From a virus, in IMG/VR virus record IMGVR_UViG_3300035157_000972: a stretch of 64,000 nt of DNA. The stretch is one strand, 5' to 3'. Positions 1 to 64,000 of this stretch are shown here, piece after piece. The translations under genes were made by a program, and so were the position numbers. The notes below the pieces were generated by a model. That model saw nothing but the letters and a program-made list of their open reading frames with translations, did not search any database and had not been told where the DNA came from. The number at the start of each line of letters is the position of its first letter. Within the stretch, counting starts at the first letter, position 1.

Positions 1-2
1 AT

Positions 3-641
3 AGTCAGGTAGAGGAAGATCGACAACCAATGCTTATGGTTCTCGATTCTCTAGGAAACCTTTCTACAGAAAAAGAAACCAAAGATATAGCGGATGGTAA
101 GTCGGTTCGTGACATGTCTAAGGCACAACTTGTAAAAGGTGCATTCAGAGTTCTAACACAGAAACTCAGTATTGCCAAAGTCCCACTTATCGTTCTAAAT
201 CACACCTATGATGTTATCGGTTCTTACGTGCCCACAAAAGAGATGGGCGGTGGTAGCGGTCTCAAGTATGCTGCCACTACTATCATATACCTATCTAAAT
301 CTCAAGAAAAAGAGGGATCAGAAAGAGTCGGAAACATTATCAAGGCAAAGGTTATTAAGTCGCGTATAAGCAAGGAGAACGAACAGATTGCCACACGTCT
401 ATACTATGATAAACGTGGTCTAGACAAGTACTATGGTCTTCTTGAACTTGCTGAGAAAGGCGGTATCTGGAAGAAAGTCTCAACTCGTTATGAAGTTGAT
501 GGCAAAAAAATATATGGTTCTGAGATACTCAAGAACCCTGAGAAATACTTCACCCAAGAAGTATTAGAACAAATTGACACTGTTGCAAAACAAACTTTTA
601 GTTATGGAAACGGAGAGAGTACCACTAACGATTCTGAGTAA
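3..641 (+). CDS. uvsX: RecA-like recombinase UvsX, 5'-truncated at window edge
   Basis: VLDSLGNL Walker B region, NHTY and [11 protein letters not shown] motifs; frame open from position 3; directly upstream of gp41. Confidence 0.95.
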
Positions 642-1983
642 TCTACTTCACGATGAAGTATATGCTCGTAAGGTTCTCCCATTTATTCGTGATGAATACT
701 TTGAAGAGAGAACTGATCGTGTAGTGTTCCAACAAATTGCAGAATATGTCAAGGCATATGATGGACTTCCTACCAAAGAAGTTCTTCATATTGAGGCAGA
801 GAAACGTGATGATCTTACACAAGATGAGTTTTCTCTAGTTGAGAACTTGATTGATGCTTTGCATGAGTCAACATCTGAAAGAGCATGGGCAGAAGATACC
901 ACAGAGTCATGGTGTAAAGAGAGAGCAATATATCTTGCATTGATGAAGAGTATTCAGATTGCTGATGGGCAAGATGAGAAGCACAATAATGATGCTATAC
1001 CAGACATACTCAAGGATGCACTATCAGTAGGATTTGATCAGCATGTAGGTCATGATTATATCGATGATTCAGAAGGAAGATATGAGTACTATCATAGAAA
1101 AGAAAACAAGATAGAGTTTGACCTTGAGATGTTCAATAAGATCACTGCAGGTGGTGTATCCAACAAGACTTTGAACATTGCACTTGCAGGAACAGGTGTT
1201 GGTAAATCTCTATTCATGTGTCACTATGCTGCTAGTGTCTTACTACAGGGTAAGAATGTTTTATATGTTACCTGTGAGATGGCAGAAGAAAAGATTGCAG
1301 AAAGAATTGATGCCAATCTACTGAATACAAATATCAAGGAAGTTGCAGAACTACCTAAGACTGTATTTGAAAAGAAAGTAAACAAACTCAGAGAAAAAAC
1401 TCAGGGTAAATTGATCATCAAAGAATACCCTACTGCATCTGCACATGTAGGACATTTCAGATCATTGTTGAGTGAATTGAAACTCAAGAAAAATTTCACA
1501 CCTGATATAATCTTCATCGATTATCTAAACATCTGTGCATCATCAAGATATAGAAGTGCAGTCAATGTAAACTCATACAATTATGTCAAAGCAATAGCAG
1601 AAGAACTTCGTGGTCTTGCTGTAGAATTTGATGTACCGATCTTCTCTGCAACTCAGACTACAAGGAGTGGTTTTACTAGCACTGACCCTGATCTTACAGA
1701 TACATCAGAGTCATTTGGTCTTCCTGCAACTGCTGACCTCATGATTGCACTTATCAGTAGTGATGAACTAGAACAACTAGGTCAGATCATGGTCAAACAA
1801 CTCAAAAATAGATACAACGATCCGACATATAACAAAAGATTTGTTGTAGGTATTGACAGACCAAAGATGAGATTGTATGATTGTGAACAAGAAGCACAGG
1901 ATGACATCTTAGACACGAATGTGGACACTCATACATCACCTTCTCAAGATTCCAAAGCAAAATTCAATGACTGGAAGTTCTAA
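604..1983 (+). CDS. gp41: T4 gp41-like replicative DNA helicase
   Basis: Walker [45 protein letters not shown]. Confidence 0.97.
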
Positions 1984-2054
1984 ATCTTACGCTGATGTAA
2001 TGAAAACTTACAAAGTCAATTACTGTGCTATAATAAAACAAAATTGGAGTGATT

Positions 2055-2510
2055 ATGTCCGGAGATTTTCAGACACACAAGGATAACCAACCACATAAAA
2101 CCTATGCCAAAGTGGACTTGGATAAGTATGCTGTATTCGTGGATGGTGTCACATCCGATCCCAGTAAAAATTATCAATCGTTTATTGACAGTCTTAGTTC
2201 CCTTGATGGAAAGGGTGCCCATATTGAACGTCTTCTTACTGCTTCCGTTGGTATTAGTGCTGAAGGCGGTGAGTTTATGGAGATCGTCAAAAAGATTATA
2301 TTTCAAGGTAAACCTTGGAACCACGATAATAGAGAACATCTTATTATTGAGTTGGGTGATGTTATGTGGTACGTGATGCAGGCATGTGCTGCCTTGAACG
2401 TGACCCTTGATGAGGTCATAGAAGGCAACGTAGAAAAACTCAAGAAGCGTTACCCCGGTGGGGATTTTGATGTTCACTACTCAGAAAATAGAGCAGCAAA
2501 CGACAGGTAG
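2055..2510 (+). CDS. mazG: MazG-type nucleotide pyrophosphohydrolase
   Basis: AEGGEFMEIVKK...ELGDVMWYV and NVEKLKKRYP motifs; usual cyanophage position after gp41. Confidence 0.93.
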   Translation: MSGDFQTHKDNQPHKTYAKVDLDKYAVFVDGVTSDPSKNYQSFIDSLSSLDGKGAHIERLLTASVGISAEGGEFMEIVKKIIFQGKPWNHDNREHLIIELGDVMWYVMQACAALNVTLDEVIEGNVEKLKKRYPGGDFDVHYSENRAANDR

Positions 2511-2544
2511 TTGACAAGTATGTAAAGTTGTGTTACTATAAATA
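2511..2544 (+). promoter_or_regulatory. psbA promoter: sigma70 -35/-10 overlapping a T4 late promoter
   Basis: TTGACA 2511-2516, 17 bp spacer, TACTAT 2534-2539; TATAAATA 2537-2544. Confidence 0.8.
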
Positions 2545-2730: not shown

Positions 2731-3819
2731 ATGACAACCTCTAACTTAACACGTAGATCAGGTGGTATTCTCAAGGGATGGCCTGAGTTCTGCGAATGGG
2801 TAACTTCAACTGACAACAGAATCTATGTTGGATGGTTCGGTGTACTCATGATTCCATGCTTACTCACAGCAGCAGCATGTTTTATCGTTGCTTTCATAGC
2901 AGCACCTCCAGTCGATATCGACGGAATCCGTGAACCTGTAGCAGGTTCATTCATGTATGGTAACAACATCATCTCAGGTGCAGTTGTACCATCTTCAAAC
3001 GCAATTGGTCTTCACTTCTATCCTATCTGGGAAGCAGCAACTCTAGATGAGTGGTTGTATAATGGTGGTCCTTATCAGTTAGTAATCTTCCACTTCCTTA
3101 TTGGAATTTCTGCCTACATGGGTAGACAGTGGGAACTATCCTACAGATTAGGAATGAGACCATGGATCTGTGTAGCATACTCTGCTCCAGTGTCAGCAGC
3201 ATTTGCTGTATTCTTAGTGTATCCTTTCGGTCAGGGATCTTTCTCAGACGGAATGCCTTTAGGTATATCAGGTACATTTAACTTCATGTTCGTGTTCCAA
3301 GCAGAACATAACATCCTTATGCATCCTTTCCATATGGCAGGTGTAGCAGGTATGTTTGGGGGTTCACTCTTTAGTGCAATGCACGGTTCTTTAGTTACTT
3401 CATCTCTAATCAGAGAAACTACAGAAGTTGAGTCTCAGAACTATGGTTATAAATTTGGTCAAGAAGAAGAAACATATAATATCGTGGCAGCACACGGATA
3501 TTTCGGAAGACTTATTTTCCAATATGCTTCTTTCAACAACTCAAGAAGTTTACACTTCTTCCTAGCAACATTCCCAGTTGTTTGTGTATGGTTGACCTCT
3601 ATGGGTATCTGTACAATGGCATTCAACCTAAACGGATTCAACTTCAACCAGTCTGTTGTGGACGCTAATGGTAAAGTTGTACCAACATGGGGAGATGTTC
3701 TAAACAGAGCAAACCTTGGAATGGAAGTTATGCATGAAAGAAATGCACACAACTTCCCATTAGACCTAGCATCTGCTGAGTCTTCACAGGTTGCTTTGAC
3801 AGCACCATCAATAGGTTAG
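2731..3819 (+). CDS. psbA: Photosystem II D1 protein
   Basis: Full-length D1 ([36 protein letters not shown]); uninterrupted. Confidence 0.99.
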
Positions 3820-3993: not shown

Positions 3994-5166
3994 ATGGCAA
4001 AAATTTCTGCTAACAGAGGAGACATAGCAGAAGGTATCATGGGTGCTGCTTTGACAGCAAAGTTTATAAAAAGACAATTGGGACAAACTGTAAAAGATCT
4101 ACCTCAAGTAAATGCTACTGATGTAGATGCAGTTCTAGCAAAATTTTTTAGAAGCGGTGGTTTATATAAAAAAACTGTAAGAGATGTTCCTAAACCTATT
4201 GAGATACCATTTCAAGAAGGAATAGATTCTGTTACTGGAGGGGCAGCGTTTGCAACAGAGACAACTGTAAACATTATAAGAGAGTTGATGTTTGAAGATA
4301 AGGTTATATTCAAACTTACTCTACCTCAAGCAGCAATGACCTTTCTGTCTAGACAATCAAATCGAACTCAGGTCAGAGACATATTCGACAGAGCAATAAG
4401 ATATGCTAATACTGATGCTACTTTTATAAGAGAAGCAAATAGGTTAGCAACTAATGCTAAGAATGATAAGATACTTGTAGATGCTGATGGTGTAAGTAAT
4501 CAATTACAAACTAAGGTAGATATAGGATTATTTGCTAATGGTAGAAAGATAGGAAAACAGATCTCACTCAAGACTGAAAGTGGCAGACAGTTTGATCAGG
4601 TTGTTGGATTTGGTATTGCTGAATTTGATAAACTTTTTTCTGATAACTTAGGAATTCTTGTGGATACTGCTGTGAAAACTGCAGTCAATAATTACATAAC
4701 GGAATTCAATGTGACTGATGCATATTCTTTCAGAGCACAGACAAGTAAGGATGTTACCGGAAGTGTCTGGGCAAGTAAACTGAAAAAGGCAGCAACGATA
4801 TATTATAAAGGTGCAGAGAAAGTAATCAAAACTAAGATCGATGCATTAGGTTTTAGAAGAAAACTTGCAAACACAATCAGAGTTGGGGCAACAAGAGGTG
4901 ATGATGACCTACAATTAGTCAAGTTTGCAGGGGCACAGGGTACATATTCTGAGAGAACTTTTGGTCCAGAGTTTGAGGATGCTGTTGAGAATGCTGATCT
5001 ATCATTAGAAACTAATTTTACAGACAACCCGACTATCAAAATTATGAGTAATAATAAACTATTAGTTCAGTTTCGTGCTAGAGTAGATGCAGATAAAAGG
5101 GCAACTGGGTATCGTATCAAACTCAGGCAAGTTCTTGAAGCAGGCACAGGATTATTTTACCTATGA
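3994..5166 (+). CDS. Hypothetical protein, possible PD-(D/E)XK restriction-like nuclease
   Basis: N-terminal GDIAEG helix and KVDI-x10-ISLK motif; function inferred. Confidence 0.45.
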   Translation: MAKISANRGDIAEGIMGAALTAKFIKRQLGQTVKDLPQVNATDVDAVLAKFFRSGGLYKKTVRDVPKPIEIPFQEGIDSVTGGAAFATETTVNIIRELMFEDKVIFKLTLPQAAMTFLSRQSNRTQVRDIFDRAIRYANTDATFIREANRLATNAKNDKILVDADGVSNQLQTKVDIGLFANGRKIGKQISLKTESGRQFDQVVGFGIAEFDKLFSDNLGILVDTAVKTAVNNYITEFNVTDAYSFRAQTSKDVTGSVWASKLKKAATIYYKGAEKVIKTKIDALGFRRKLANTIRVGATRGDDDLQLVKFAGAQGTYSERTFGPEFEDAVENADLSLETNFTDNPTIKIMSNNKLLVQFRARVDADKRATGYRIKLRQVLEAGTGLFYL

Positions 5167-6275: not shown

Positions 6276-9200
6276 ATGAGTAATCCTTGGTCACAAGCAT
6301 ACGAAGAACTTCGTAAACCTTACCTTGAAGGTAAGATGGCGAAGAAGGACTACGATGGTGACGGTAAAATAGAATCTGGTACAGATGAATACATGGGTTC
6401 TAGAGACAAAGCAATCAAAAAAGCGATGGCAGAGAAAGGTAAAAAAAAAGTCTCTGAGCACCATCAAAAAGATGCCGACGGAAATGTAATACCTCACGGT
6501 GACGGAACTCCTAGTTCTGTTGAAGAAGAGAATATAGATGAATTAAGTAAGACAACCACCGCAAATTATCTTTATCAAGCAAAGGTAGATAAAGATTATG
6601 TTCACAGTGGAAAGATGGGGAAGTATGCGAAAGCAAGAGATAAAGGATTAAAAAGAGCAGAGAAAAAACTAGGACCTAAAATTTCTAAGACAGTCTCTGA
6701 TCATGCAAGAACTGATTCTCAGACAATGAGACGTGATATTGATAACTCAAAGTTTCCTAGAAAATATAAGGTCAAAGAAGATGTAGAACAAATTGATGAG
6801 TTGAGTAAGAAGACTTTAGGTGGTTATATTAAGAAGGCAAGTAAAGAAACCAGAGGAAACATGGTGGCAACACAGCATGGATCTGGTATACCAAAAAGAG
6901 CAAAGGATATCAAACTCAAGCAGGTCAATAAAAGACTGAAGGGTATGGAGAAGGCAGGCGAGAAGTTGGCAAAGGAAGAAGTCAAGATGTCTCGTAAAGA
7001 ATATGCTAAGATCCATAAGGATTTCAAGTCTGATGATCCTAAGAATCCTAGAACTACAAAGTATGTTAAAGGTAAGGGCACTGTCTCTATGCCTGTAAAG
7101 TTTACTGATGAGTTTCAGCATATAGAATACAATCCTCTTGCAGAAGCAATTTTAGGAACACTTCATGTCGCTGACATGGCAGCAAATACTATTGCATGGC
7201 AGAATAGAATGGATACAAATGAAAAGGGTGAGAGATTGTATGATTTCGGACAGGATCTTATCAATGCAATGGCAGAGTATGTTGATGAAGCAGTAGAACT
7301 AACTGAAGAGTTCATTACTGAGAGAGTAGATTATGCCACTGAGTATTTTTTCAACGAAGGAATCAATGAGGAAGGTTTAGATATTATCATTGAGGAATTA
7401 GGTATTGAAGACTTTACCGAATTTGTTCTTGATGGACCTGAAGAACTATATGAGGATGAAGCTGCCTATCAAAAAGCAAAGAAGAAGGCATTTGCAGGAT
7501 CAGAAAAAAGAAAACGTGAAGGCAAGGGTGAGTATTCTCCAAAAGGATCAAAGAGTCCTTATGCCAAGCAGGGTTTAGGTGCAAAAACTCAGAAGAAACC
7601 TAAGATCAAGAAGATTGGAGACATTGGTACACGAGTAGTTGCTGCTACTAAGAAAGCAAAGAAAGAACAACCAGCAAAACCAATATCTAAAAAGGGTCTT
7701 GGTAGTAAGATTGGTAGTTTTGTTAAGAAAGGAATCGAAAGACATAACAAAGCAAGAGCAGCAGGTAAAGTTCCTGAGAAACGTGCAAGGGAATTTGCTA
7801 AAGGTGTGGGATCTGGTGTAAAAACTGCTGTCAAGTTTGCTAAAGATGTTAAGAAAGTTGTAAGTAAAGAAGAGGTGGACATTGATGAGGCAAAGGTTGA
7901 CAAGTTAGTACCAGATCATAAGAGATCAGGTAAAAGACTAGAACGTTATGGTAATCCTCATGGATCTCTTGCACTTGGCGGTGGTATCCAAAGAGATAGA
8001 AGAGCAGACCATGCAGAAAGAAGAGGTAAGAAGACTAAGGGTATGAAGAAAGAGGACTGGAGATCAGACCTTCAATACATTGAAGAGATATCTCCCTATG
8101 CTGAACCTAGAAAGGCAGGAAAAAAGGATGAGAAGATCAAGGAAGGTAATGTAAAAAATAAAATTACAATCAATCCCACTGTTACTGTTGAGTCTCAACA
8201 GATCGATGAAAATCCTTTAGCGGTAGGTGCTGCACTAGGTATTGCTGCCGGTGGTGGTTATCTTGTCAATAAATTGAGACAGCAGAAAAATAAAATTGAT
8301 AAGGGTCAAACTGTAAGTGGAATAGCAGGTGCATTGCAGAAAAAAAATCAGACTCTACAGCAACTTCAGAATAATTCACATAAACCAGAAGGTGAAATAC
8401 TATCAGATGAAAATGTGATAGACAAACTGAAGAATCTTGTGAAGTCAGGTTTCAAAAATAGACAGAAGCAAATTGAAAAAGGAACACAAACTACTACTGG
8501 TGCTGCAAGTCAAATGCTGCAGATGAATAGTCATGAACCAGAAGGTCAGGTAGTTGAAGATGCTAAGATGGCAAGGCAAAGTGATGATGCTCTATCAGCA
8601 GCACATAAGAAGTTCAGTAGTATGGATCAAACATCCCCTGCTAACAAGTTTATGTTGAAGAGAATCACCAAGGAGATGAATAGGAGAAAAAAAAAAGTTA
8701 ACGAAGATCTAAATCGTAATCAAAAACCCTTCTATCAAAAGAAATATACCACTGGTGGATATAAAACCGTGGGTACTAACAAGAGAATGAACTCTTCTTC
8801 TGATCGTAAGAAGGCAGGGACTGTTGACTCCAAAGCATCTCATAGAAGTCAGATGAAGGACTTTGCTGATGCAGGTATCATCAAGAAAGGTAAATCTGGT
8901 GGTGGTTTGAAAAAAGGACTGGCATCACTGAAGAAAGAGTCTCTTTTAGATCAAGTTGCTAGTGCATACGTGGACGAAGCAACTCGTATGAAGAAGGAGA
9001 TGGGATATGATAAGGGTGGTACAAAGAAACCCAAGGGTCCTAAAACTAAGGATGCTGCACTTGATGCTGTAAAGAAATCAATCACTGCTAAGTATGGTAA
9101 GGGAGCGATCATGAGAAGTGGTAGCAACCAACCTAAGAAAGTCAAAGGTGCAAAACCCAGTGGTGTTGGTAAGTTCAAGATGATGGCAGACAAGAAGAAG

Positions 9201-9317
9201 GAGACTGCTGCAGACGCTAAGAAGCGTGGGTTCAAGAACACTCAGGATTATGTAAACACCATGGCAAGGTATGGTGGTAAAGATAATTACGACAAAGGTA
9301 AAGGACTAGGCACATAG
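6276..9317 (+). CDS. 1013-aa Lys-rich modular protein, probable internal head protein
   Basis: Late promoter CTAAATA 6242-6248; basic modules separated by (I/L/V)xE acidic linkers; internal repeats. Confidence 0.65.
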   Translation: MSNPWSQAYEELRKPYLEGKMAKKDYDGDGKIESGTDEYMGSRDKAIKKAMAEKGKKKVSEHHQKDADGNVIPHGDGTPSSVEEENIDELSKTTTANYLYQAKVDKDYVHSGKMGKYAKARDKGLKRAEKKLGPKISKTVSDHARTDSQTMRRDIDNSKFPRKYKVKEDVEQIDELSKKTLGGYIKKASKETRGNMVATQHGSGIPKRAKDIKLKQVNKRLKGMEKAGEKLAKEEVKMSRKEYAKIHKDFKSDDPKNPRTTKYVKGKGTVSMPVKFTDEFQHIEYNPLAEAILGTLHVADMAANTIAWQNRMDTNEKGERLYDFGQDLINAMAEYVDEAVELTEEFITERVDYATEYFFNEGINEEGLDIIIEELGIEDFTEFVLDGPEELYEDEAAYQKAKKKAFAGSEKRKREGKGEYSPKGSKSPYAKQGLGAKTQKKPKIKKIGDIGTRVVAATKKAKKEQPAKPISKKGLGSKIGSFVKKGIERHNKARAAGKVPEKRAREFAKGVGSGVKTAVKFAKDVKKVVSKEEVDIDEAKVDKLVPDHKRSGKRLERYGNPHGSLALGGGIQRDRRADHAERRGKKTKGMKKEDWRSDLQYIEEISPYAEPRKAGKKDEKIKEGNVKNKITINPTVTVESQQIDENPLAVGAALGIAAGGGYLVNKLRQQKNKIDKGQTVSGIAGALQKKNQTLQQLQNNSHKPEGEILSDENVIDKLKNLVKSGFKNRQKQIEKGTQTTTGAASQMLQMNSHEPEGQVVEDAKMARQSDDALSAAHKKFSSMDQTSPANKFMLKRITKEMNRRKKKVNEDLNRNQKPFYQKKYTTGGYKTVGTNKRMNSSSDRKKAGTVDSKASHRSQMKDFADAGIIKKGKSGGGLKKGLASLKKESLLDQVASAYVDEATRMKKEMGYDKGGTKKPKGPKTKDAALDAVKKSITAKYGKGAIMRSGSNQPKKVKGAKPSGVGKFKMMADKKKETAADAKKRGFKNTQDYVNTMARYGGKDNYDKGKGLGT

Positions 9318-16323: not shown

Positions 16324-16482
16324 ATGAAACCAGATGATAAAGAGGGATTGATCCCTAAGATTAAAAACCCGTATAATCTGGGGTCAGATAATGAGTGGTA
16401 TGACTGTGACGGTCTGGACTATGAAATTGATTACTTTGAATTAGTTGACGATGAAAACACAGAGTGCAAAAGCGAAGGGTAG
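16324..16482 (+). CDS. 52-aa acidic hypothetical protein
   Basis: Hand-translated MKPDDKEGLIPKIKNPYNLGSDNEWYDCDGLDYEIDYFELVDDENTECKSEG; fills the gap. Confidence 0.5.
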   Translation: MKPDDKEGLIPKIKNPYNLGSDNEWYDCDGLDYEIDYFELVDDENTECKSEG

Positions 16483-16780
16483 GAGACTACAACAATGGGT
16501 GAGAGATATGCTCATTGAACATAGGAATGTGCACCCTGAAGATATTGAGTCCAGAAGTATGGGTGCAGGTGGGGAAGACCTGATAATGGCACGAGATGCT
16601 AGACAAAAGTTCCCTTTTAGTGTAGAATGTAAGAACCAAGAGAAACTAAATGTTTGGGATGCATATCAGCAAGCAGTTGAAAACTCTGGTGATTATGAAC
16701 CCATTCTTATCATGAAGAAAAATGGAAAGAAACCATTGGTCGTCTTGGACGCGGAAAACTTTATCAGATCCCAACGCTGA
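16451..16780 (+). CDS. Small PD-(D/E)XK nuclease, Holliday-junction-resolvase-like
   Basis: KAKGRRLQ, GEDL, SVECKN motifs. Confidence 0.75.
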   Translation: MKTQSAKAKGRRLQQWVRDMLIEHRNVHPEDIESRSMGAGGEDLIMARDARQKFPFSVECKNQEKLNVWDAYQQAVENSGDYEPILIMKKNGKKPLVVLDAENFIRSQR

Positions 16781-41237: not shown

Positions 41238-41255
41238 AAACAGCAAAGTTTTATT

Positions 41256-44498: not shown

Positions 44499-44581
44499 GA
44501 GAAATAAATAAGGGTGTAGAACTCTTGATGCGGAGAGAAACTAATCATCTTCCAACTGAAAATCTTACTAGGAGAAAACAC

Positions 44582-44800
44582 ATGCAAGCAGCACTCATAA
44601 CAATCGGTGTATTCACAGGCATTCTCACCCTTTCTGTAGGGGTTATCCTAGGGTATATTCTACGCACCTATATACAGGACAACAACCAAAATGCATATAC
44701 TTATCATCCAGAAATGTTTGATGAGAATGGACAATTAGTTCCTGACGAAATCATTTCATTCCGAATCGAAGGGGACGAATCTACTGAACTTGAAGATTAA
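44582..44800 (+). CDS. Single-TM hypothetical protein
   Basis: AGGAG RBS; HPEMFDENG motif. Confidence 0.75.
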   Translation: MQAALITIGVFTGILTLSVGVILGYILRTYIQDNNQNAYTYHPEMFDENGQLVPDEIISFRIEGDESTELED

Positions 44801-44802
44801 TT

Positions 44803-45252
44803 ATGGCAAAACTACCTGACAACCCTTTAGTATCTGAACTGTTCAAAGCAGTTCATGGTAAGAAAGATAAAGGGGGAAAGAGAGATCTCCTATCACAACA
44901 CAAACGTGATGATGTGAAAGCACTATTGATTTGGAACTTTGATAAGCAAATAAAAAGTGCCATACCAGAAGGAGAAGTACCTTACAAAAAGAATGAAGCA
45001 CCCATCAACTCTGGAGGACACACACGTCTCGTTCATGAGTGGAGAACTCTTTACAATTTCATAAGAGGTGGTAACGATCAACTCTCTCAGATGAAAAGAG
45101 AGACCATGTTTATTCAATTACTTGAAAGTTTACATGAGTCTGAAGCAGAATTACTGATGCTAGTAAAAGATAAGAAACTACAAACAAAATACAGAATCAC
45201 CAGAGCACTGGTAGAAGAAGTATTTAATGAGATACAATGGAGAGATAAGTAA
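44803..45252 (+). CDS. Conserved T4-like hypothetical protein
   Basis: IPEGEVPY, KRETMFIQLLESLH. Confidence 0.8.
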   Translation: MAKLPDNPLVSELFKAVHGKKDKGGKRDLLSQHKRDDVKALLIWNFDKQIKSAIPEGEVPYKKNEAPINSGGHTRLVHEWRTLYNFIRGGNDQLSQMKRETMFIQLLESLHESEAELLMLVKDKKLQTKYRITRALVEEVFNEIQWRDK

Positions 45253-45518
45253 TGGTCAGAGTACTTCATGAGAAGTGTGACAAAAAGGTTGCAGATAATC
45301 CGAAACTGCCTTACAATGCATATCTCATAGAGTACAAAGAAGGCGAGGAGCATTTCTTTGATGTCGCTATTGCAGATAGGGCAGTGGATATATTTGATCA
45401 CTACTATGATAAGAGTAGTAAGTTTGTCAACATGACTCAAGCAGGAGGTCTAGTCAACCCTAAACAGTGGACAGATCCATCCTTACCACCCCCAAAGAAA
45501 AACCGTAATAAAAGATAA
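45252..45518 (+). CDS. Conserved hypothetical protein
   Basis: LPYNAYLIEY..DIFDHYYD. Confidence 0.75.
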   Translation: MVRVLHEKCDKKVADNPKLPYNAYLIEYKEGEEHFFDVAIADRAVDIFDHYYDKSSKFVNMTQAGGLVNPKQWTDPSLPPPKKNRNKR

Positions 45519-45545
45519 AGACTTGTTACAAATGTAGTGATATCC

Positions 45546-45576
45546 TTGCATAAATAGAATCGGTATGTTATGATAC
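45546..45576 (+). promoter_or_regulatory. sigma70 promoter with an NtcA-like box over the -10
   Basis: TTGCAT 45546-45551, 17 bp, TGn-TATGAT 45569-45574; GTA-N8-TAC at 45563-45576. Confidence 0.6.
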
Positions 45577-45581
45577 CATTA

Positions 45582-45626
45582 CGTTCATCAGGTAACACTG
45601 ACGCAAGTAAGTCAAGACTCGGAACG
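45582..45626 (+). ncRNA. Glutamine riboswitch aptamer 1 (glnA-type)
   Basis: P1 CGTTC/GAACG, P2 TCAG-gtaaca-CTGA, GACGCAAGTA junction. Confidence 0.8.
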
Positions 45627-45629
45627 GAT

Positions 45630-45669
45630 CGTTCATCCCATTGGGACGCAAAAGTTGACCGAAGGAACG
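45630..45669 (+). ncRNA. Glutamine riboswitch aptamer 2 (glnA/Downstream-peptide type)
   Basis: P1 CGTTC/GAACG, P2 TCCC-att-GGGA, GACGCA..GACCGAAGGAACG. Confidence 0.8.
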
Positions 45670-45702
45670 GGGCAAAAATCCCAACTACTAAGGAGAAAAC
45701 AA

Positions 45703-45828
45703 ATGGCAAAAGTCACTTACAGAGGTGTCGAGTACGACTCAAAAGAGTACAACGCTAAAGTGCTTGCAGAAGCAAAGCAGCGTGAAAGACACGAACTAAT
45801 GTATCGTGGACTAAAGGTTGCAAAATAG
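45703..45828 (+). CDS. 41-aa DUF4278-type peptide
   Basis: Hand-translated MAKVTYRGVEYDSKEYNAKVLAEAKQRERHELMYRGLKVAK; two YRG motifs; AAGGAG RBS. Confidence 0.88.
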   Translation: MAKVTYRGVEYDSKEYNAKVLAEAKQRERHELMYRGLKVAK

Positions 45829-45880
45829 TTGCTAAAAGGTACAAATACCTATATAATAATATAAGTATTATTACCTACAC

Positions 45881-45964
45881 ATGACAAAGTTATTCTATCA
45901 ACTCTGTTTTTTAGCATTCATATTTTCAAGCATTGCATATCTTCCTAGACTTGCATATGCATAA
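45881..45964 (+). CDS. 27-aa hydrophobic micropeptide
   Basis: Hand-translated MTKLFYQLCFLAFIFSSIAYLPRLAYA. Confidence 0.45.
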   Translation: MTKLFYQLCFLAFIFSSIAYLPRLAYA

Positions 45965-45988
45965 TGTCTACAACTAAATACAATCTCA

Positions 45989-46027
45989 GAAGGGGTGCTT
46001 GACACCCCTTTTTCAATCCAATATAAT
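45989..46027 (+). terminator. Terminator hairpin overlapping the -35 of the next sigma70 promoter
   Basis: AAGGGGTG-cttga-CACCCCTT plus T run; TTGACA 45999-46004, N17, TATAAT 46022-46027. Confidence 0.75.
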
Positions 46028-46029
46028 AT

Positions 46030-46215
46030 ATGAATACACTCAAACAAACAGTAAAACTAATCAAGGCAGCACTCAAACACAAGCATCTATACTCCAAGAA
46101 AGAAGTTTTCTACATGAAGAATTCATTGAAGGAGGCAAAGAAAGAACTAAAGATGCAGAAGTCTGTCAAGTCATTGCAAGAAAATGAAAGTACAACTAAT
46201 AACAGTAACGCCTGA
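46030..46215 (+). CDS. Small basic hypothetical protein, possibly leaderless
   Basis: ATG immediately after the -10 element. Confidence 0.6.
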   Translation: MNTLKQTVKLIKAALKHKHLYSKKEVFYMKNSLKEAKKELKMQKSVKSLQENESTTNNSNA

Positions 46216-46813
46216 CGCTGAAAAGAACATGGCATTTGTTGCCAGAGTATCTAATCCAAATAATCAGGACAACGAAAACTTTTCTGGACTGTTAAAGTAT
46301 TGCATCAAGCATCAGCATTGGTCTGTATTTGAGCAAGCACACATGACACTTGAGATTGAAACTACCCGTGCTATTGCAGCACAAATTCTTCGACATCGTA
46401 GTTTCACATTCCAAGAGTTCTCTCAAAGATATGCACAGAGTCACGAACTCGGAGAGATACAACTACCAGAACTTAGAAGACAGGACGTAAAGAATAGACA
46501 GAATAGTATAGATGATCTGGATGCTGATGTTGTTGATAAACTCAACCGTCAGATGATCACTCTATTCAGTTCTGCTGAGAGTCTTTATAAACAGATGATT
46601 GATAAAGGAGTTGCAAAAGAATGTGCAAGAATGGTTCTACCATTATGCACTCCAACTCGGATATATATGACAGGATCAGTGAGATCTTGGATACATTATA
46701 TAAACTTACGTTCAGCACATGGTACTCAGAAGGAGCACATGGAGATTGCTGAGTCGTGTAAGGATGTATTCAAGAAACAATTCCCTGTTGTATCTGAAGC
46801 ACTTGAATGGTAA
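46184..46813 (+). CDS. thyX: FAD-dependent thymidylate synthase ThyX
   Basis: HWSVFEQ, QILRHRSFTFQEFSQRY, KECARMVLP. Confidence 0.97.
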   Translation: MKVQLITVTPDAEKNMAFVARVSNPNNQDNENFSGLLKYCIKHQHWSVFEQAHMTLEIETTRAIAAQILRHRSFTFQEFSQRYAQSHELGEIQLPELRRQDVKNRQNSIDDLDADVVDKLNRQMITLFSSAESLYKQMIDKGVAKECARMVLPLCTPTRIYMTGSVRSWIHYINLRSAHGTQKEHMEIAESCKDVFKKQFPVVSEALEW

Positions 46814-47427
46814 ATCTATTTCTTGGACCAACTCATGACTTGAGTTTTTTATATAATGATGAAGAAGCACAACGAGTGACACCACAGGAGATCGCTACAT
46901 TCATCATGCAAGATGAGATTGTAGCGGTCTATAATGGTAGATCAGAAGCAGGTCCTAGAGCATTAGGAAATAGAAGTATATTATATGACCCAAGAGATAT
47001 CAATACTAAGGAGACAATAAACAAGGTAAAGAGGAGGGAACGTTTCCGACCCTTTGCTGCTGCTGTGTTGAACGAACATGCAAATGAATGGTTTGATATG
47101 TCTGGACTGAATAGATCCCCTACAATGTCATATGCAGTGCAGACACGAGAAGAAAAGAAAGAATTGATACCCGGAGTTGTTCATATAGATGATACATGTA
47201 GAGTTCAAACAGTAGAGAATGATATACCTCATTTGTATGAGGTCATACAAGAGTTCTACAAGTACACTAAAGTTCCTATGGTATTGAATACCTCATTCAA
47301 CCTTGCAGGTCAACCTCTAGTTGAAACACCACAAGATGCTATAGATACATGGAAAGAATCTGATATTCATGTACTCTGGTTTCCAGAAGCAAGACGAATG
47401 TACAAGAGTTCATCGCTAGGAGATTGA
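46807..47427 (+). CDS. Carbamoyltransferase C-terminal (YrdC-like) domain, stand-alone
   Basis: SEAGPRALGNRSIL, KRRERFRPFA, HIDDTCRVQT, LNTSFN. Confidence 0.9.
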   Translation: MVNLFLGPTHDLSFLYNDEEAQRVTPQEIATFIMQDEIVAVYNGRSEAGPRALGNRSILYDPRDINTKETINKVKRRERFRPFAAAVLNEHANEWFDMSGLNRSPTMSYAVQTREEKKELIPGVVHIDDTCRVQTVENDIPHLYEVIQEFYKYTKVPMVLNTSFNLAGQPLVETPQDAIDTWKESDIHVLWFPEARRMYKSSSLGD

Positions 47428-47428
47428 T

Positions 47429-48268
47429 ATGAGAATCTTAGGAGTAAATCTATCAAATAATGGTTCTATATGTGTGCTCAACAATGGTGAGATAGAATTA
47501 TACTTGGAAGCAGAAAGATTATCGAGAAAGAAAAGGGATTATAATTGTACAAAACTGTTTGGGTTAGTAAAAGATGTGGATAAGATTGCTATAAGTGATG
47601 CCTGTTGGAGTCAAGATAAGAAAAAGTCTCTTATATCTTCAAAGAATATAGCAACGATCAAGAAAAAGTTTCCGAATGCTGAGAGATATGATTTCAGAGA
47701 CAGACATCATCTAACTCATGCTGCCTGTGGATTCTATAACTCAGAGTTTGAAGAAGCAGCAGTCATTATAGTTGACTCAAGTGGATCTAACTTCAAGGAA
47801 GGAGATGAGTGTGAAACTATCATGCATGTCAAGCGAGGTAGAAGATTTCATTGGAAGGTTTTGCACAAGAGATATAATACCGATGATGATTATGGTATAG
47901 GTTTACAGTTTGATATGGTATCAGAGAAATGTAAATGGGGAAGAGAAGAAGCAGGAAAGGTCATGGGTCTTGCACCCTATGGACAATATGTTGATGGACC
48001 ATACTTACACTCATCAAATGAGAACGCTGCTGCTACCATTCAATATGATTGGGAGCAAAGAGCAGTGGAGTTGGTCAAGATAGCATCAGAGAAATGTAAT
48101 AATATTGTTCTGACGGGTGGATGTTTTCTCAATGTTGTGGTAAACTATAAACTATTGAAGGAATTTCCTGATTTGAATTTCTATGTTGACCCGATTGCTT
48201 TCGATGGAGGAACTGCTATCGGATCAGCATATATACTTCACCACAATCCCAAAATAAAATCTTACTAA
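47429..48268 (+). CDS. Carbamoyltransferase N-terminal (Kae1-like) domain, stand-alone
   Basis: EAERLSRKK, HHLTHA, GKVMGLAPYG, TGGCFLNV, DGGTAIG. Confidence 0.9.
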   Translation: MRILGVNLSNNGSICVLNNGEIELYLEAERLSRKKRDYNCTKLFGLVKDVDKIAISDACWSQDKKKSLISSKNIATIKKKFPNAERYDFRDRHHLTHAACGFYNSEFEEAAVIIVDSSGSNFKEGDECETIMHVKRGRRFHWKVLHKRYNTDDDYGIGLQFDMVSEKCKWGREEAGKVMGLAPYGQYVDGPYLHSSNENAAATIQYDWEQRAVELVKIASEKCNNIVLTGGCFLNVVVNYKLLKEFPDLNFYVDPIAFDGGTAIGSAYILHHNPKIKSY

Positions 48269-48269
48269 C

Positions 48270-48521
48270 ATGCCAACATACCCTGTAAAAAATTTGAAGA
48301 CTGGCGAAACTAAAGAGATCATTATGTCCATGAAAGAATATGATCAGTGGAGAAAGGACAACCCTGATTGGGATAAGGACTGGTCACAAGGAGCAGCATC
48401 AGCAGTGAGTGCTACTGGGGATGTTTACAGTAGGACAGATGGAGGATGGAATGAAGTTCTATCAAGAGTCGGTAAAACACCCGGTTCAAATGTAAAACCT
48501 CAGAAAACGGTGCACTTCTAA
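48270..48521 (+). CDS. Conserved hypothetical protein (MPTYP, FmdB-like)
   Basis: MPTYPVKNLKTGE..GWNEVLSRV; usual position before phoH. Confidence 0.8.
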   Translation: MPTYPVKNLKTGETKEIIMSMKEYDQWRKDNPDWDKDWSQGAASAVSATGDVYSRTDGGWNEVLSRVGKTPGSNVKPQKTVHF

Positions 48522-49282
48522 TGCCTGCTAGAAAGAAGAAGACTTCCAATCAAGTTGGGGTAGGTATGACTGCCAAACAAATTAGGAGGAAGAAACCTTA
48601 CAATGCTGACATGATGATTCCCATCGAGGCATTGACTGAGAATCAGAAAAAACTATTTGCATCACTCAATGAAGGTAAGAATGTATACACGTACGGAGTG
48701 GCAGGAACTGGTAAAACTTTTGTGGTTTTATATCATGCCCTCAAGGAAGTCCTCGATCCTATTACACCATATAACAGGATTGTAATAGTAAGGTCTCTTG
48801 TATCTACAAGAGAGATAGGTTTCCTACCCGGTGACCATGATGATAAGTCAGCACTATACCAGATACCATACAAAAATATGGTCAAGTATATGTTTGAGTT
48901 ACCTACAGACAGTGAGTTTGAAATGTTGTGGGGTAATCTCAAGACACAGGAGAGTGTCAAGTTTTGGTCAACCAGTTTTGTTAGAGGCACAACACTTGAT
49001 GACTGCATCATGATAGTTGATGAGTGTCAGAACTTGAATTTTCATGAGTTAGATAGTATAATAACAAGAGTAGGAGAGAACTGTAAGATCCACTTCTGTG
49101 GTGACGCTGCACAAACCGACTTAGTAAAAACAAATGAGAAGAATGGTATCCTTGACTTCATGAAAATACTTGCAGCAATGCCTGAGTTTGATTCTATTGA
49201 ATTTGGTATTGAAGATATAGTAAGATCAGGATTAGTCAAGAGTTATATTCTCAACAAACTGGCAATGAGTATTGATGTTTAA
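48521..49282 (+). CDS. phoH: PhoH-family ATPase
   Basis: GVAGTGKT, IGFLPG, RGTTL, DECQN, GDAAQTD. Confidence 0.96.
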   Translation: MPARKKKTSNQVGVGMTAKQIRRKKPYNADMMIPIEALTENQKKLFASLNEGKNVYTYGVAGTGKTFVVLYHALKEVLDPITPYNRIVIVRSLVSTREIGFLPGDHDDKSALYQIPYKNMVKYMFELPTDSEFEMLWGNLKTQESVKFWSTSFVRGTTLDDCIMIVDECQNLNFHELDSIITRVGENCKIHFCGDAAQTDLVKTNEKNGILDFMKILAAMPEFDSIEFGIEDIVRSGLVKSYILNKLAMSIDV

Positions 49283-49940
49283 TCATGTAGAGTGTGATCT
49301 TCCTGCACTATCAAGGAAGACTATCGATGGTGTCAGATATTATTCGGTTGATGATAGACCGATGGTATCCATTACTTCTGTCACATCATATTGGAACCGA
49401 GAGATCTTCAAGAAATGGAGAGCAAGAGTTGGTGAGGAGGAAGCAAACCGAATCACTAAGAAGGCAACCAATCGTGGCACGAAAACTCACGAGTTGATAG
49501 AGCACTTCCTACTCAATGAAGAGGTTGTATTAGACAACCCTAGTACTAAGATGTTATTCACTCAAGCAAAAAAAGAGTTGAAAAACATAAATAACATCTA
49601 TGCGTTAGAGAAATCTCTATACAGCAGAGAATTAGGAGTAGCAGGGACGGTAGATTGCATCGCAGAATACAAGGGAGAACTTGCAATCATCGACTTCAAA
49701 ACTGCAGAGAAACCTAAACCTGTTGATTGGATCGAGAACTATTTTGTACAGGCAGCAGCATATGCTTGTATGTTCTATGAGATTACAGACATCCCCGTCA
49801 AGAAACTTGTCATTCTCATGACATGCACCAACGGAGAGGTGAAAGTTTACGAAGAGTATGATAAAATGAAATATATGAGAAAACTTGTCCAGTACATCCA
49901 ACTATTTGTCGAGGAAAAACTAAATGAAATCCAAAAGTGA
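49275..49940 (+). CDS. PD-(D/E)XK exonuclease
   Basis: RGTKTH, AGTVDC, IIDFKT, YFVQAAAY. Confidence 0.9.
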   Translation: MFNHVECDLPALSRKTIDGVRYYSVDDRPMVSITSVTSYWNREIFKKWRARVGEEEANRITKKATNRGTKTHELIEHFLLNEEVVLDNPSTKMLFTQAKKELKNINNIYALEKSLYSRELGVAGTVDCIAEYKGELAIIDFKTAEKPKPVDWIENYFVQAAAYACMFYEITDIPVKKLVILMTCTNGEVKVYEEYDKMKYMRKLVQYIQLFVEEKLNEIQK

Positions 49941-60113: not shown

Positions 60114-60116
60114 GCA

Positions 60117-62839: not shown

Positions 62840-63231
62840 TACTGATACCTCGCTATATTAACTGGCATTTCAATACCACCTAGAACTCTTACAAATTCTG
62901 ATAGTGATAAACTAAATGCTTTTTCCCAATCGGACATAGGAACTTCTGAAAAATTTGATCTTACGTAACCGTACAGGTATTTATGGTATCCCGTGATGAC
63001 TGTTGGGTCGTTATCTTCATCAAGATATCTCATGATTGCCATTCTGTTTGATGGTTTGGTGTAATGAAGGTTAATACCGTAAAAAGCACCCGATTCTGTT
63101 GCTAAAACATAGCATAAAGGGTGTTTATCGTAGAAAGGGAGTGTGTCTTTATACTTTGCAGAGTATCTGAACAGTAAAAGTTTGCCCGGGCTGACGTTAG
63201 ATGGTTGAGTGTTGAGTAGACTAGATGCCAA
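62839..63231 (-). CDS. gp2: gp2-like DNA end protector (short form)
   Basis: PGKLLLFRYSAKYKDTLPFYDKHPL, GINLHY. Confidence 0.75.
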   Translation of the reverse strand: MASSLLNTQPSNVSPGKLLLFRYSAKYKDTLPFYDKHPLCYVLATESGAFYGINLHYTKPSNRMAIMRYLDEDNDPTVITGYHKYLYGYVRSNFSEVPMSDWEKAFSLSLSEFVRVLGGIEMPVNIARYQ

Positions 63232-63655
63232 GTTCCTTCTCCGTGATTATTTGAAAATTCCATTTACGATCTTTGCAGAATGACTCTGCTGCTTGCCATT
63301 TTGCTTGGTTTTTAGCAAATTCATAGACCTCTGCAACATATTTCTTTGTTCTTCTTTTCTGTATAGTAGGACCTTTGACCTGTTTTTGTGGTTTGACTTC
63401 TATGAGTCTTTCTTCTATTTTACCAGTAGAACTCTTCATTTTGACATAAAAGTCTGGAAAATACCTATGATAGCGGTTGTCAATGGGTGATTTGTATGGT
63501 ATTACTACTTCTTCACTCGACCATTTCAAAATATTCACATTACCATCACACCAACGCATGAATTTCAGTTCCCATAAAGAGCGATATATCACCTTTGTGG
63601 GATCACCTTTATACTTATTAGGGTTGGAAGGACGGAACTTCCCCTTATATGACAT
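63221..63655 (-). CDS. gp4: Head completion nuclease gp4
   Basis: KYKGDP..YRSLWE, WSSEE, RYFPDF, IEVKP, NQAKW. Confidence 0.93.
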   Translation of the reverse strand: MSYKGKFRPSNPNKYKGDPTKVIYRSLWELKFMRWCDGNVNILKWSSEEVVIPYKSPIDNRYHRYFPDFYVKMKSSTGKIEERLIEVKPQKQVKGPTIQKRRTKKYVAEVYEFAKNQAKWQAAESFCKDRKWNFQIITEKELGI

Positions 63656-63683
63656 ACATAGTATATACTGTCCATCTATTTAG

Positions 63684-64000
63684 ATGCCTAAATCAAGAGT
63701 TTTTTCAAAAGATAGATTTTACTTGAGAACAGAAGAGTTGTATAATCTCGGTGGTTTCAATAATGCTGTACCTGCATTTAATAATCTTTATGATGTTTAT
63801 ATCAACTTCAATACTCAGGGTGGAAATCCTAATCTCATGCAATTTATAAAACAGCATGTGATATTACCTGCTAATGATGTAATGAATGAACCGGGAGATA
63901 ACTTAGCACTATTCTGTTCAGAAGCGGTTTTACCGGGTTCACAGATTCAAACTGCCTCTATCAGTGGTTTGAGGCAAGGTGTAACACAAAATTATGCTGT
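63684..64000 (+). CDS. Tail-tube/baseplate initiator-like protein (gp19/gp54 family), 3'-truncated
   Basis: Hand-translated MPKSRVFSKDRFYLRTEE..LFCSEAVLPG; divergent from gp4. Confidence 0.6.
   Translation, partial: MPKSRVFSKDRFYLRTEELYNLGGFNNAVPAFNNLYDVYINFNTQGGNPNLMQFIKQHVILPANDVMNEPGDNLALFCSEAVLPGSQIQTASISGLRQGVTQNYA

Follow-up and report, generated by a model that had tools for sequence, protein, structure and literature searches.

Avoidance of CCWGG, RGCY and other restriction-type words in a clade of T4-like cyanomyoviruses

Lytic phages are known to avoid restriction sites, as shown by Staphylococcus phage K and related phages, which have lost GATC, or by phages T3 and T7, which are refractory owing to their scarce EcoRII sites. 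The stretch of viral DNA analysed here (64,000 bases, hereafter the window) appeared on visual inspection to be nearly devoid of CCWGG, raising the question of which short words have been removed from this genome, by what process and by which agent. The window has a GC content of 37.8%, somewhat above the 36% or so estimated in the first-pass annotation.

Short words missing from the window

Expected counts were obtained from 300 within-gene shuffles of synonymous codons over the 84 called genes, complemented by zero-order, dinucleotide and maximal-order Markov nulls; the maximal-order Markov expectations agree with the codon-shuffled ones and the four nulls concur. CCWGG is absent from the window (0 observed against 42.7±4.8 expected, with a minimum of 31 among the shuffles), and AGCT (5 against 169) and GGCC (8 against 31) are likewise far below the codon-shuffled expectation, so that the near-total avoidance of CCWGG claimed by the first-pass annotation is upheld. 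The same annotation listed AGCT and GGCC as two further rare words, which they are; they are not separate targets, however, but one half of the four-word set RGCY, the other members of which are equally rare (AGCC 0, GGCT 4; 17 observed for the set against 346±13). Near-neighbour words remain abundant (AGCA 436, GGCA 225, TGCT 338, TGCC 123), RGCR and YGCY stand at 1.20 and 1.33 of expectation, and the overall pattern is that of a CviJI-type RGCY specificity. The depletion is also larger than first stated, since GCGC (0 against 19.9), TTAA (69 against 316) and GCTGG/CCAGC (4 against 41) are affected as well, and CGCA/TGCG partially (42 in the window), while no depletion is seen for YGCY, RGCR, CCSGG and AATT. 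Examined in 4-kb bins, the depletion extends over positions 1-64000 (no strand assigned) and is even along the window, the glycan and tailoring islands included, with that of TTAA somewhat weaker at 20-24 kb and 60-64 kb.

GATC and CCGG are common in the window, as had been noted, and for both a protective methylation had been suggested. GATC is simply at expectation (328 observed against 287), and the surplus of CCGG (67 against 52) is a by-product of the coding of Pro-Gly as CCC-GGN or CCG-GGN, with 36 of the 67 sites lying within CCSGG (36 against 17.7); protection by methylation is thus an unneeded assumption.

The four depleted words AGCT, AGCC, GGCT and GGCC are exactly the recognition set of CviJI, a restriction-modification system of the chloroviruses that cuts RG^CY and whose virus-encoded nuclease attacks host DNA. 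Chloroviruses keep their RGCY sites and protect their own DNA by methylation, whereas the phage of the window removes the sites; no CviJI-like gene, RGCY nuclease or RGCY methyltransferase was identified here.

Selection on DNA and its persistence

The manner of the purge is evident from the codon usage. Proline codons preceding glycine are CCC (23) or CCG (6) and never CCA or CCT, against 317 CCA, 327 CCT, 78 CCC and 46 CCG elsewhere, and alanine codons following a purine-ending codon are GCA 433, GCG 41, GCT 4 and GCC 2, against GCT 295, GCA 258, GCC 64 and GCG 15 following a pyrimidine-ending one. The earlier remarks that Pro-Gly is always CCC-GGN or CCG-GGN and that Glu-Ala is nearly always GAA GCA are therefore borne out, as is the remark that GGCC occurs where Trp-Pro forces it (4 of the 8 sites); the Trp-Pro dipeptide itself occurs 4 times against 12 expected. 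Purging proceeds mainly by context-dependent synonymous choice (CCC or CCG before glycine, GCA or GCG after a purine), with TTAA removed by the use of TTG or NNC in place of TTA-A or NNT-AA, and partly by the shunning of site-forcing dipeptides such as Trp-Pro.

The depletion holds for each of the three codon phases as well as for non-coding DNA (RGCY 3 against 40, TTAA 12 against 47) and is symmetrical between the strands, AGCC and its complement GGCT being depleted equally. The products expected from deamination show no surplus (CTWGG, CCWAG and RGTY at 1.02, 1.01 and 1.00 of expectation), the gain falling instead on RGCR/YGCY and TCAA/TTGA. Because all phases and non-coding DNA are affected and deamination products have not accumulated, the depletion reflects selection at the level of DNA and not mutation. 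A decay of sites by conversion of 5-methylcytosine to thymine, in the absence of any selection, is accordingly very improbable. The cytosine-containing depleted words are typical targets of cytosine-5 methylation, as such a decay would have it, but it is largely refuted by the counts of the deamination products and by the loss of sites through flanking wobble changes; moreover, TTAA contains no cytosine, and no C5 methyltransferase was found when the window and five records of related phages were searched. The proposal of a strong selection imposed by a CCWGG-specific system consequently stands as far as the strong selection is concerned, which is of a kind that sequence-specific nucleases exert. 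An EcoRII-type nuclease was not found in 301 picocyanobacterial genomes, a negative that carries no weight because the control genomes gave no match either.

Close relatives show that the selection continues. An independent IMG/VR contig (L163) that matches positions 35768-49058 of the window on the minus strand at 97.65% identity has the same motif avoidance, and direct site comparison combined with re-simulation revealed that the 310 substitutions separating the two created no new RGCY, CCWGG, GCGC or GCTGG site (13.3 expected) and only 3-4 new TTAA sites (9.5 expected). In five loci of relatives that are 85-88% identical in nucleotide sequence, each set against a different sample of origin from that of the window (five samples in all), CCWGG counts are 0 against 37 and RGCY counts 15 against 373. 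The purge of CCWGG and GCTGG/CCAGC is common to relatives that share 85–98% identity with the window and stem from a number of further metagenomes, and GCGC and CCWGG are exactly zero in the window and in all the clade relatives. The avoidance is thus ongoing and clade-deep.

As in other lytic phages that avoid restriction sites, short palindromic targets have been lost nearly totally by synonymous choice while neighbouring words are kept; the present case differs in that no fewer than five words are depleted together, one of them the degenerate four-word set RGCY, in that one layer is family-wide across unrelated hosts, and in that the hosts are regarded as restriction-poor. A general survey of restriction-site avoidance in phages (PMC6286503) makes no mention of cyanophages, Prochlorococcus, Synechococcus, RGCY or CCWGG, and no earlier description of RGCY, restriction-site or palindrome avoidance in cyanophages, or of RGCY in connection with Synechococcus or Prochlorococcus, was found in the open papers.

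Two layers of avoidance and candidate systems in the hosts

The window comes from a clade of T4-like cyanomyoviruses (Kyanoviridae) that probably infects Prochlorococcus. The host is indicated by psbA (2731-3819, plus strand; Pfam Photo_RC), the D1 product of which shares 94% of its amino acids with D1 of Prochlorococcus but 87% with that of marine Synechococcus, and which holds one forced GGCC (Trp-Pro) at 2780. Since every motif is at expectation in the Prochlorococcus and Synechococcus loci, the avoidance does not mirror the base composition of the host.

Comparison across phages separates two layers. RGCY depletion was observed in nearly all the Kyanoviridae checked, including a SAR11 myophage, the exceptions being three family members (L031, L037 and L071); it is absent from host chromosomes and from the podovirus P-SSP7, which infects Prochlorococcus. 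RGCY avoidance is one signature common to the whole phage family and therefore cannot be specific to the host of the window phage. In contrast, CCWGG is avoided in none of 58 other cyanomyovirus loci with a length of 9 kb or more, and only this clade has purged CCWGG and GCTGG/CCAGC totally. The purges of GCGC and TTAA are common to only some other lineages (TTAA in L077, 0 against 119), and further words are missing from particular relatives, such as CCGG (0 in Syn9, P-SSM2, S-RIM8 and Syn19) and TCGA (0 in HTVC008M); such relative-specific sets of purged words are as expected under varied restriction pressure. Carriage of a methyltransferase in place of RGCY avoidance was considered and yields no rule: the undepleted L037 carries an N4/N6 methyltransferase, Syn9 is depleted despite a 54% identical methyltransferase, and in L031 and L071 no methyltransferase was found in the fragments covered.

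A signature that tracks the phage family and not the host could be yielded by an intrinsic family property, and two origins other than nucleases have to be weighed: a constraint set, for instance, by the structure or packaging of the DNA or by signals for replication or transcription, and an artefact of composition or codon usage. Such an origin is improbable: the agreement of the four nulls weakens the artefact, the depleted words, which are palindromic or symmetrical between the strands, correspond to the specificities of known enzymes and their close contexts are spared, and L031, L037 and L071 belong to the family and yet do not show the RGCY depletion.

The analysis shows that the words are depleted, that selection is responsible, that the depletion persists and how it is distributed over the phylogeny; that nucleases are the agent, and which ones, we infer. 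The explanation that we favour, with confidence and doubt about evenly balanced, is purifying selection against sequence-specific endonucleases acting on unmodified DNA, mainly restriction-type systems of the host cell or the host population. Short and mostly palindromic words would be purged by selection against the cutting of unmodified DNA by systems that the phage encounters inside the infected cell or among the population of its hosts, the RGCY layer being inherited and maintained across the phage family and the CCWGG and GCTGG/CCAGC layer belonging to this clade only. Marine picocyanobacteria are usually described as restriction-poor, with their resistance to phages attributed to the cell surface (PMC6708340). 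Five purged restriction-type words, one of them family-wide regardless of the host, imply a strong and lasting nuclease pressure in these populations.

Some features of the distribution sit uneasily with a host origin. The RGCY depletion of the SAR11 myophage and its lack in P-SSP7 are better accounted for by a cause that lies with the phage family than by one that lies with the hosts, and a general host barrier should also affect the 58 cyanomyovirus loci that keep CCWGG.

Bioinformatics searches for host systems were performed in 301 picocyanobacterial genomes. Cytosine-5 methyltransferases were identified in 37 of them, the top-scoring Dcm-like enzyme in only three (G202, G287 and G264), and EcoRII-C gave no match in any, an uninformative result with the control genomes equally silent. 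In two high-light Prochlorococcus genomes (G202 and G287; 91% nucleotide identity to MIT 9302), Vsr and the methyltransferase are followed by MzaB-E-type genes. In the G202 copy, to which the details of the island refer, Vsr lies directly upstream of the methyltransferase, with MzaB-E and then an integrase after it; the methyltransferase shares 50% identity with E. coli Dcm across an alignment of 391 columns, the variable/target-recognition region included, and has 3lx6 and 3me5 as its best PDB matches. PADLOC matches were obtained for MzaB (3.9e-73), MzaC (7.6e-110), MzaD (5.5e-11) and MzaE (2.6e-78), and the Pfam domains of the island are HATPase_c_3 (GHKL ATPase), Z1, DUF4420 and AIPR; 15 of 401 genomes encode a Z1 (MzaC-like) protein. 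The island thus resembles Mza, a candidate defence system in PADLOC with Dcm and Vsr, in having MzaB/C/D/E, a cytosine methyltransferase and Vsr, and differs from it in that a CCWGG specificity and an anti-phage activity are presumed for Prochlorococcus; no earlier description of such an island in Prochlorococcus was found in the literature examined. It may be the agent behind the loss of CCWGG. The island is rare (3 of 301 genomes), and no nuclease with any matching specificity was identified, both of which count against the host reading.

Small methyltransferase-bearing islands inside Prochlorococcus chromosomes were found to be RGCY-free. These are not ascribable to a single RGCY enzyme, because the three island methyltransferases share the catalytic core alone; the names obtained for them by homology search, from NCBIfam and from the phage collection were generic only. 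These rare mobile islands (Dcm/Vsr/Mza and the RGCY-free methyltransferase islands) nevertheless provide testable leads to the source of the pressure, and the motif profile could mark the host range or lineage of uncultured cyanophages.

Methylation in related viruses bears on a further possibility. In marine viral genomes m4C at RGCY is the commonest methylated motif (Hiraoka et al. 2022, PMC8919816), and RGCY, CCWGG and GGWCC recur as m4C motifs in Myoviridae-like ones (PMC8919816). The words and the environment are the same as in the window, and the virus group is probably so, pointing to a common pressure, although those viruses modify the sites that the window clade deletes; motif depletion in cyanophages is not reported there. 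The words might have been lost as targets of host or phage methyltransferases, allowing the phage to escape Type IV nucleases, which depend on methylation, when it enters the next host, given that RGCY, CCWGG and GCGC are classic targets of cytosine methyltransferases, that a Dcm-like enzyme is present in the host lineage and that marine myoviruses methylate RGCY and CCWGG (PMC8919816). The chance of this is slim: TTAA and GCTGG fit it poorly, and the many related marine viruses that keep and methylate their sites (PMC8919816) suggest that methylation protects rather than exposes.

Candidate nuclease genes carried by the phage

The source of the pressure had been left between host and phage, and each side now offers a candidate, neither of them proven: the Vsr/Dcm-like/Mza island and an orphan restriction-endonuclease-like gene just downstream of psbA (3994-5166, plus strand, 390 aa, assigned from its predicted fold). 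The product and 70 relatives have no Pfam match, no PDB match was found for it by sequence or profile searches, and the family comprises 281 representatives. The AlphaFold2 model (pLDDT 92.8) has HinP1I as its best Foldseek match (E 7.8e-3, probability 0.91), and VIA-align, where a Z below 8 is middling, aligned it with MspI (Z 7.1, 205 residues, rmsd 4.5), HinP1I (Z 6.5, 198 residues) and the HhaI endonuclease (Z 5.2). The product is therefore confidently predicted to have the fold common to the solved MspI and HinP1I endonucleases. Its C-terminal half matches an Atlas cluster (TM 0.78) of which 38% of the members carry RE_HaeIII, a similarity to be taken only as a lead. E13, D176 and S191-x-K193, putative catalytic residues, are invariant or nearly so in 70 family sequences. 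The likeness to the monomeric Type IIP enzymes MspI and HinP1I lies in the predicted fold and, putatively, in this arrangement of a conserved N-terminal Glu and Asp...Ser-x-Lys; the differences lie in a sequence identity of 6-15%, in length (390 aa against about 250-260 aa) and in the product being phage-encoded, with neither a Pfam family nor a partner methyltransferase.

This gene opens a rival explanation for the clade-specific layer. The phage's own restriction-type nuclease(s) might shred the DNA of the host and perhaps of co-infecting phages, with the phage genome kept site-free and its leftover sites methylated by the phage. The nearest solved relatives of the orphan product cut 4-bp G+C palindromes (MspI CCGG; HinP1I and HhaI GCGC), and no methyltransferase gene adjoins it or was found anywhere in the window. 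The gene is present in every CCWGG-free clade member covering the position and in none of 80 other nrdA-centred loci; elsewhere, among all the loci fetched, it occurs only in S-RIM8 and Syn19. The zero counts of GCGC and CCWGG throughout the clade are what self-immunity requires, and a family-wide, host-independent RGCY signature fits a phage-borne agent. Set against this, the product could equally be a homing endonuclease, GCGC is also zero in nine relatives that lack the gene at this locus, and the distant homologues in S-RIM8 and Syn19 are accompanied by no purged word that non-carriers lack. In the near-complete relatives G002 and G003, both the N4/N6 and the C5 methyltransferase families are missing although roughly one RGCY site in four is retained, making an own RGCY nuclease an unlikely fit for them because the kept sites would be cut; likewise, for the 17 RGCY and 69 TTAA sites of the window self-immunity fails unless these are methylated. 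Self-immunity is thus possible, though we regard it as doubtful. A link between the nuclease family and the purged words was sought in S-RIM8 and Syn19 and not found, these carriers of distant homologues and non-carriers alike having no CCGG.

A broader and more speculative proposal, which we consider unlikely, is that the RGCY purge of the Kyanoviridae stems from four-base cutters borne by the phages themselves, those of the virus-restricted MspI/HinP1I/HaeIII-like family represented beside psbA in the window, and not from the hosts. Such cutters would shred the DNA of the host and of rival co-infecting phages, and carriers and competitors would both evolve site-free genomes, some adding m4C to leftover sites. 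If true, motif avoidance in marine myoviruses would be a record of phage-against-phage warfare and not of host defence. This uncharacterised, virus-restricted family of restriction-like nucleases is a further lead to the source of the pressure, beside the restriction-type systems of hosts that we favour.

Two other nuclease-like genes, neither of them linked to the motifs by the evidence here, were identified in the window: a small candidate PD-(D/E)XK endonuclease of 111 aa (16445-16780, plus strand; Pfam PDDEXK_15 at 28.4 bits, cut-off 27) and a PD-(D/E)XK superfamily protein downstream of phoH (49272-49940, plus strand; Pfam PDDEXK_1 at 25.3 bits, cut-off 22).

Motif avoidance in a T4-like cyanomyovirus

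The window is a portion of a T4-like cyanomyovirus and carries genes for a gp41-type helicase, MazG, psbA, gp61 primase, nrdA/nrdB, PTOX, transaldolase, thyX, phoH, gp59 and the gp32 region, along with large sugar-modifying islands. At the DNA level it matches only Synechococcus and Prochlorococcus myoviruses in the phage collection, with about 72-76% identity in nrdA/B. The encoded D1 protein is 94% identical to D1 of Prochlorococcus and 87% to that of marine Synechococcus, a resemblance that makes Prochlorococcus the likely host.

Word counts were compared with a null in which synonymous codons were shuffled within each of the 84 called genes, which cover 92.5% of the window, in 300 rounds. 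A first-pass annotation had claimed near-absence of CCWGG and proposed this comparison as the check; the motif was found to be entirely absent, against 42.7±4.8 occurrences in the shuffled sequences (minimum 31). Strong depletion was also observed for GCGC (0 against 19.9), TTAA (69 against 316), GCTGG and CCAGC taken together (4 against 41) and CGCA/TGCG (42 against 161). The four leftover CCAGC sites all lie in one orientation. Zero-order, dinucleotide and maximal-order Markov nulls agree with the codon-shuffle result, and when every 4-, 5- and 6-mer is ranked, the depleted words and the longer words containing them come lowest.

The annotation had also named AGCT and GGCC, and both are indeed depleted (5 against 169 and 8 against 31, respectively); they are, however, not separate targets but half of a single depleted set, RGCY (17 observed against 346 shuffled), since AGCC (0) and GGCT (4) are equally rare when compared with AGCA (436), GGCA (225), TGCT (338), TGCC (123) and TGCA (373). 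Its reading of the codon choices proved exact: Pro before Gly is encoded by CCC (23) or CCG (6) and never by CCA or CCT, which make up 84% of the Pro codons elsewhere, and GCT/GCC account for 6 of 480 Ala codons after a purine-ending codon against 359 of 632 after a pyrimidine-ending one. The statement that GGCC occurs mostly at forced Trp-Pro pairs holds for half of the sites, 4 of the 8 being Trp-Pro and not recodable. The methylation proposed to protect the common words CCGG and GATC is not needed: CCGG (67 against 52) is frequent because avoidance of CCWGG at Pro-Gly yields CCCGG or CCGGG, 36 of the 67 sites falling inside CCSGG (36 against 17.7), and GATC (328 against 287) is at expectation.

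The depletion affects every codon phase as well as 4.8 kb of non-coding DNA (RGCY 3 against 40, TTAA 12 against 47) and is symmetric between the strands. The products expected from deamination of methyl-cytosine show no excess (CTWGG 1.02, CCWAG 1.01 and RGTY 1.00 of expectation), and words one flanking wobble change away from the depleted ones are in excess (RGCR 1.20, YGCY 1.33, TCAA/TTGA 1.36). Among all window genes, the Trp-Pro dipeptide is scarce (4 against 12 expected) and Pro-Gly is under-represented (29 against 50 expected from amino-acid composition), which suggests that the avoidance extends to the protein level. It is even across the window and holds also in the islands that are the likeliest acquisitions; for TTAA it is somewhat weaker in the 20-24 kb and 60-64 kb stretches. 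The window represents a real, strong and well-delimited motif avoidance of the restriction type, a fresh example of a known phenomenon.

Persistence and distribution among relatives

The same motif profile was found in L163, an IMG/VR contig 97.65% identical to window positions 35768-49058. In neither lineage did the 310 substitutions separating the two give rise to a new site for RGCY, CCWGG, GCGC or GCTGG, against 13.3 expected from random substitutions of equal spectrum, and zero was reached in 0 of 500 simulations; new TTAA sites numbered 3-4, with 9.5 expected. In five more loci with 85-88% DNA identity, each from a further sample of its own (three from JGI, one from ENA and one from Logan), CCWGG is again absent (37 expected in sum), as is GCGC, and RGCY occurs 15 times against 373. 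Since the avoidance is repeated across samples, it is a trait of a whole, environmentally common clade, here termed the CCWGG-free clade. In clade relatives, a pair of shorter ORFs of ~315 and 271 aa (loci L184, 2502-4231, and L186, 2747-4485) stands in place of a Lys-rich ORF of 1013 aa (window 6276-9317), and the length of this gene is therefore variable within the clade.

Two layers of avoidance are observed, RGCY depletion being family-wide and the other purges lineage-specific. With expectations from dinucleotide frequencies, the observed/expected ratio of RGCY is about 0.1-0.35 in most of 58 nrdA-centred IMG/VR relatives and about 1 in three loci (L031, L037 and L071). The counts are 44/360 in Syn9, 69/220 in P-SSM2, 42/267 in S-RIM8 and 41/153 in the SAR11 myophage HTVC008M, those of the Prochlorococcus podovirus P-SSP7 are 538/542, and chromosomal loci of Prochlorococcus and Synechococcus stand at about 1. 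In P-SSP7, GGCC is depleted (6/65) and AGCT enriched (308/231). Depletion of CCWGG and GCTGG/CCAGC was found in none of the other lineages compared, the lowest ratios in relatives being 0.40 and 0.47 (maximal-order Markov). Other family members purge words of their own entirely, namely CCGG in many, TCGA in HTVC008M (L181; 0/36), TTAA in locus L077 (0/119) and GCGC in several.

Several smaller features accompany these patterns. CCGG is absent from Syn9 (L164), P-SSM2 (L182), S-RIM8 (L189) and Syn19 (L190), and low counts were recorded for GATC in S-RIM8 (18/107) and CATG in P-SSM2 (25/93). In many relatives (L001-L080), the nrdA-sense strand tends to carry an excess of GCTGG (e.g. 36 against 15 and 30 against 16), a word eliminated in the CCWGG-free clade. 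In a cyanomyovirus contig without RGCY depletion (L162, G004:C1:55310-59041), an N4/N6 methyltransferase gene with a sigma-70-like gene after it lies ~6 kb upstream of nrdA, and at gp61-gp62 of Syn9 (L164 19277-20777) a 220-aa ORF that matches no Pfam family runs into the beginning of a beta-class N4/N6 methyltransferase.

Among the methylated motifs of marine viral genomes, RGCY, as m4C, is the most frequent (Hiraoka et al. 2022, PMC8919816), and methylation of RGCY, CCWGG and GGWCC is common to Myoviridae-like genomes in varying combinations (PMC8919816). RGCY and CCWGG, both depleted in the window, are thus words on which pressure acts in this virus group; whereas those Myoviridae-like marine viruses modify their RGCY/CCWGG sites, the present clade deletes them. 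No earlier description of RGCY or CCWGG avoidance in cyanophages was found in the open literature. Unusual features are the degenerate RGCY signature across the Kyanoviridae and the occurrence of several purges at once in a phage of hosts reputedly without restriction-type defences.

A phage-borne nuclease candidate

Nucleases, whether host-encoded, phage-encoded or methylation-dependent, are very probably the selective agent, although the support is indirect. Searches of the 64-kb window for DNA methyltransferases gave no match. A candidate nuclease of 390 aa is encoded next to psbA (3994-5166); its sequence matches neither a Pfam family nor a PDB entry, its family comprises 281 representative clusters, and the nearest Atlas clusters are nearly all viral. 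Residues E13, D176 and S191-x-K193 are conserved in the family. An AlphaFold2 model (pLDDT 92.8, 70-sequence alignment) has HinP1I as its top PDB match (Foldseek, probability 0.91), and exhaustive structural comparison placed MspI (Z 7.1), HinP1I (Z 6.5) and the HhaI endonuclease (Z 5.2) in the top four, over a background of ~3.5. For the C-terminal half, the match is to an Atlas cluster with RE_HaeIII in 38% of its members. All these structural relatives cut 4-bp G+C palindromes, and the modelled fold points to an uncharacterised, and in itself unusual, family of viral restriction-like nucleases.

Such a nuclease, borne by a phage whose own genome lacks the targets, ranks second as the agent and is considered possible but rather unlikely. 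RGCY depletion tracks the phage family and not the host, CCWGG and GCGC are exactly zero, and a clade-specific nuclease gene coincides with a clade-specific purge; among all loci fetched, the gene occurs only in the CCWGG-free clade, S-RIM8 and Syn19. No motif could be linked to it, CCGG being zero in carriers and non-carriers alike and GCGC zero also where the gene is missing. Two relatives, G002 and G003 (completeness estimated at 100% and 90%), possess neither N4/N6 nor C5 methyltransferases and yet retain about one-fourth of their RGCY sites, which would hardly fit with their encoding an RGCY nuclease. Host restriction and self-immunity may both be acting, on different motifs.

Candidate restriction systems in the host lineage

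Restriction systems of the host or its community, which would select against the depleted words, rank first, at about an even chance, because site avoidance has precedent, the purged words form a mosaic among relatives, the hosts contain RGCY-free mobile islands and a Dcm/Mza island is found in the host lineage. Of the 301 genomes sampled from the picocyanobacterial family, 37 contain C5 methyltransferases. The top-scoring ones include those of G202 and G287, two genomes with 91% DNA identity to Prochlorococcus MIT 9302 over 10 kb, where they occupy a similar chromosomal position. The G202 island (L176, G202:C1:338000-357000, about 8.2-18.3 kb), a putative defence island of high-light Prochlorococcus, encodes, in order, Vsr, a Dcm-like methyltransferase, proteins matching PADLOC MzaB, MzaC, MzaD and MzaE (GHKL ATPase, Z1, DUF4420 PD-(D/E)XK and AIPR) and an integrase. 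The methyltransferase is 50% identical to E. coli Dcm over its full length, variable region included, and by this resemblance is predicted to be specific for CCWGG. DNA similarity to the G287 locus (L177; ~91% identity) is limited to the vsr and methyltransferase genes; the G287 locus also encodes a Z1 protein, 39% identical to that of G202. Of 401 picocyanobacterial genomes, 15 encode a Z1 (MzaC-like) protein, and a C5 methyltransferase of ~690 aa frequently lies close by, at a comparable place in the chromosome.

Three other C5 methyltransferase-bearing islands in Prochlorococcus-type chromosomes (L178 8001-12000, L179 2001-8000 and L180 10001-14000) have 0-1 RGCY per 2 kb across 4-8 kb, against 15-25 per 2 kb in their flanks. 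An EcoO109I-like nuclease is present in one island and an integrase in another; the methyltransferases of the three are unrelated beyond the catalytic core, and no close homologues of these were found in cyanomyoviruses. The pressure on RGCY that acts on the myoviruses thus appears to extend to mobile DNA in Prochlorococcus.
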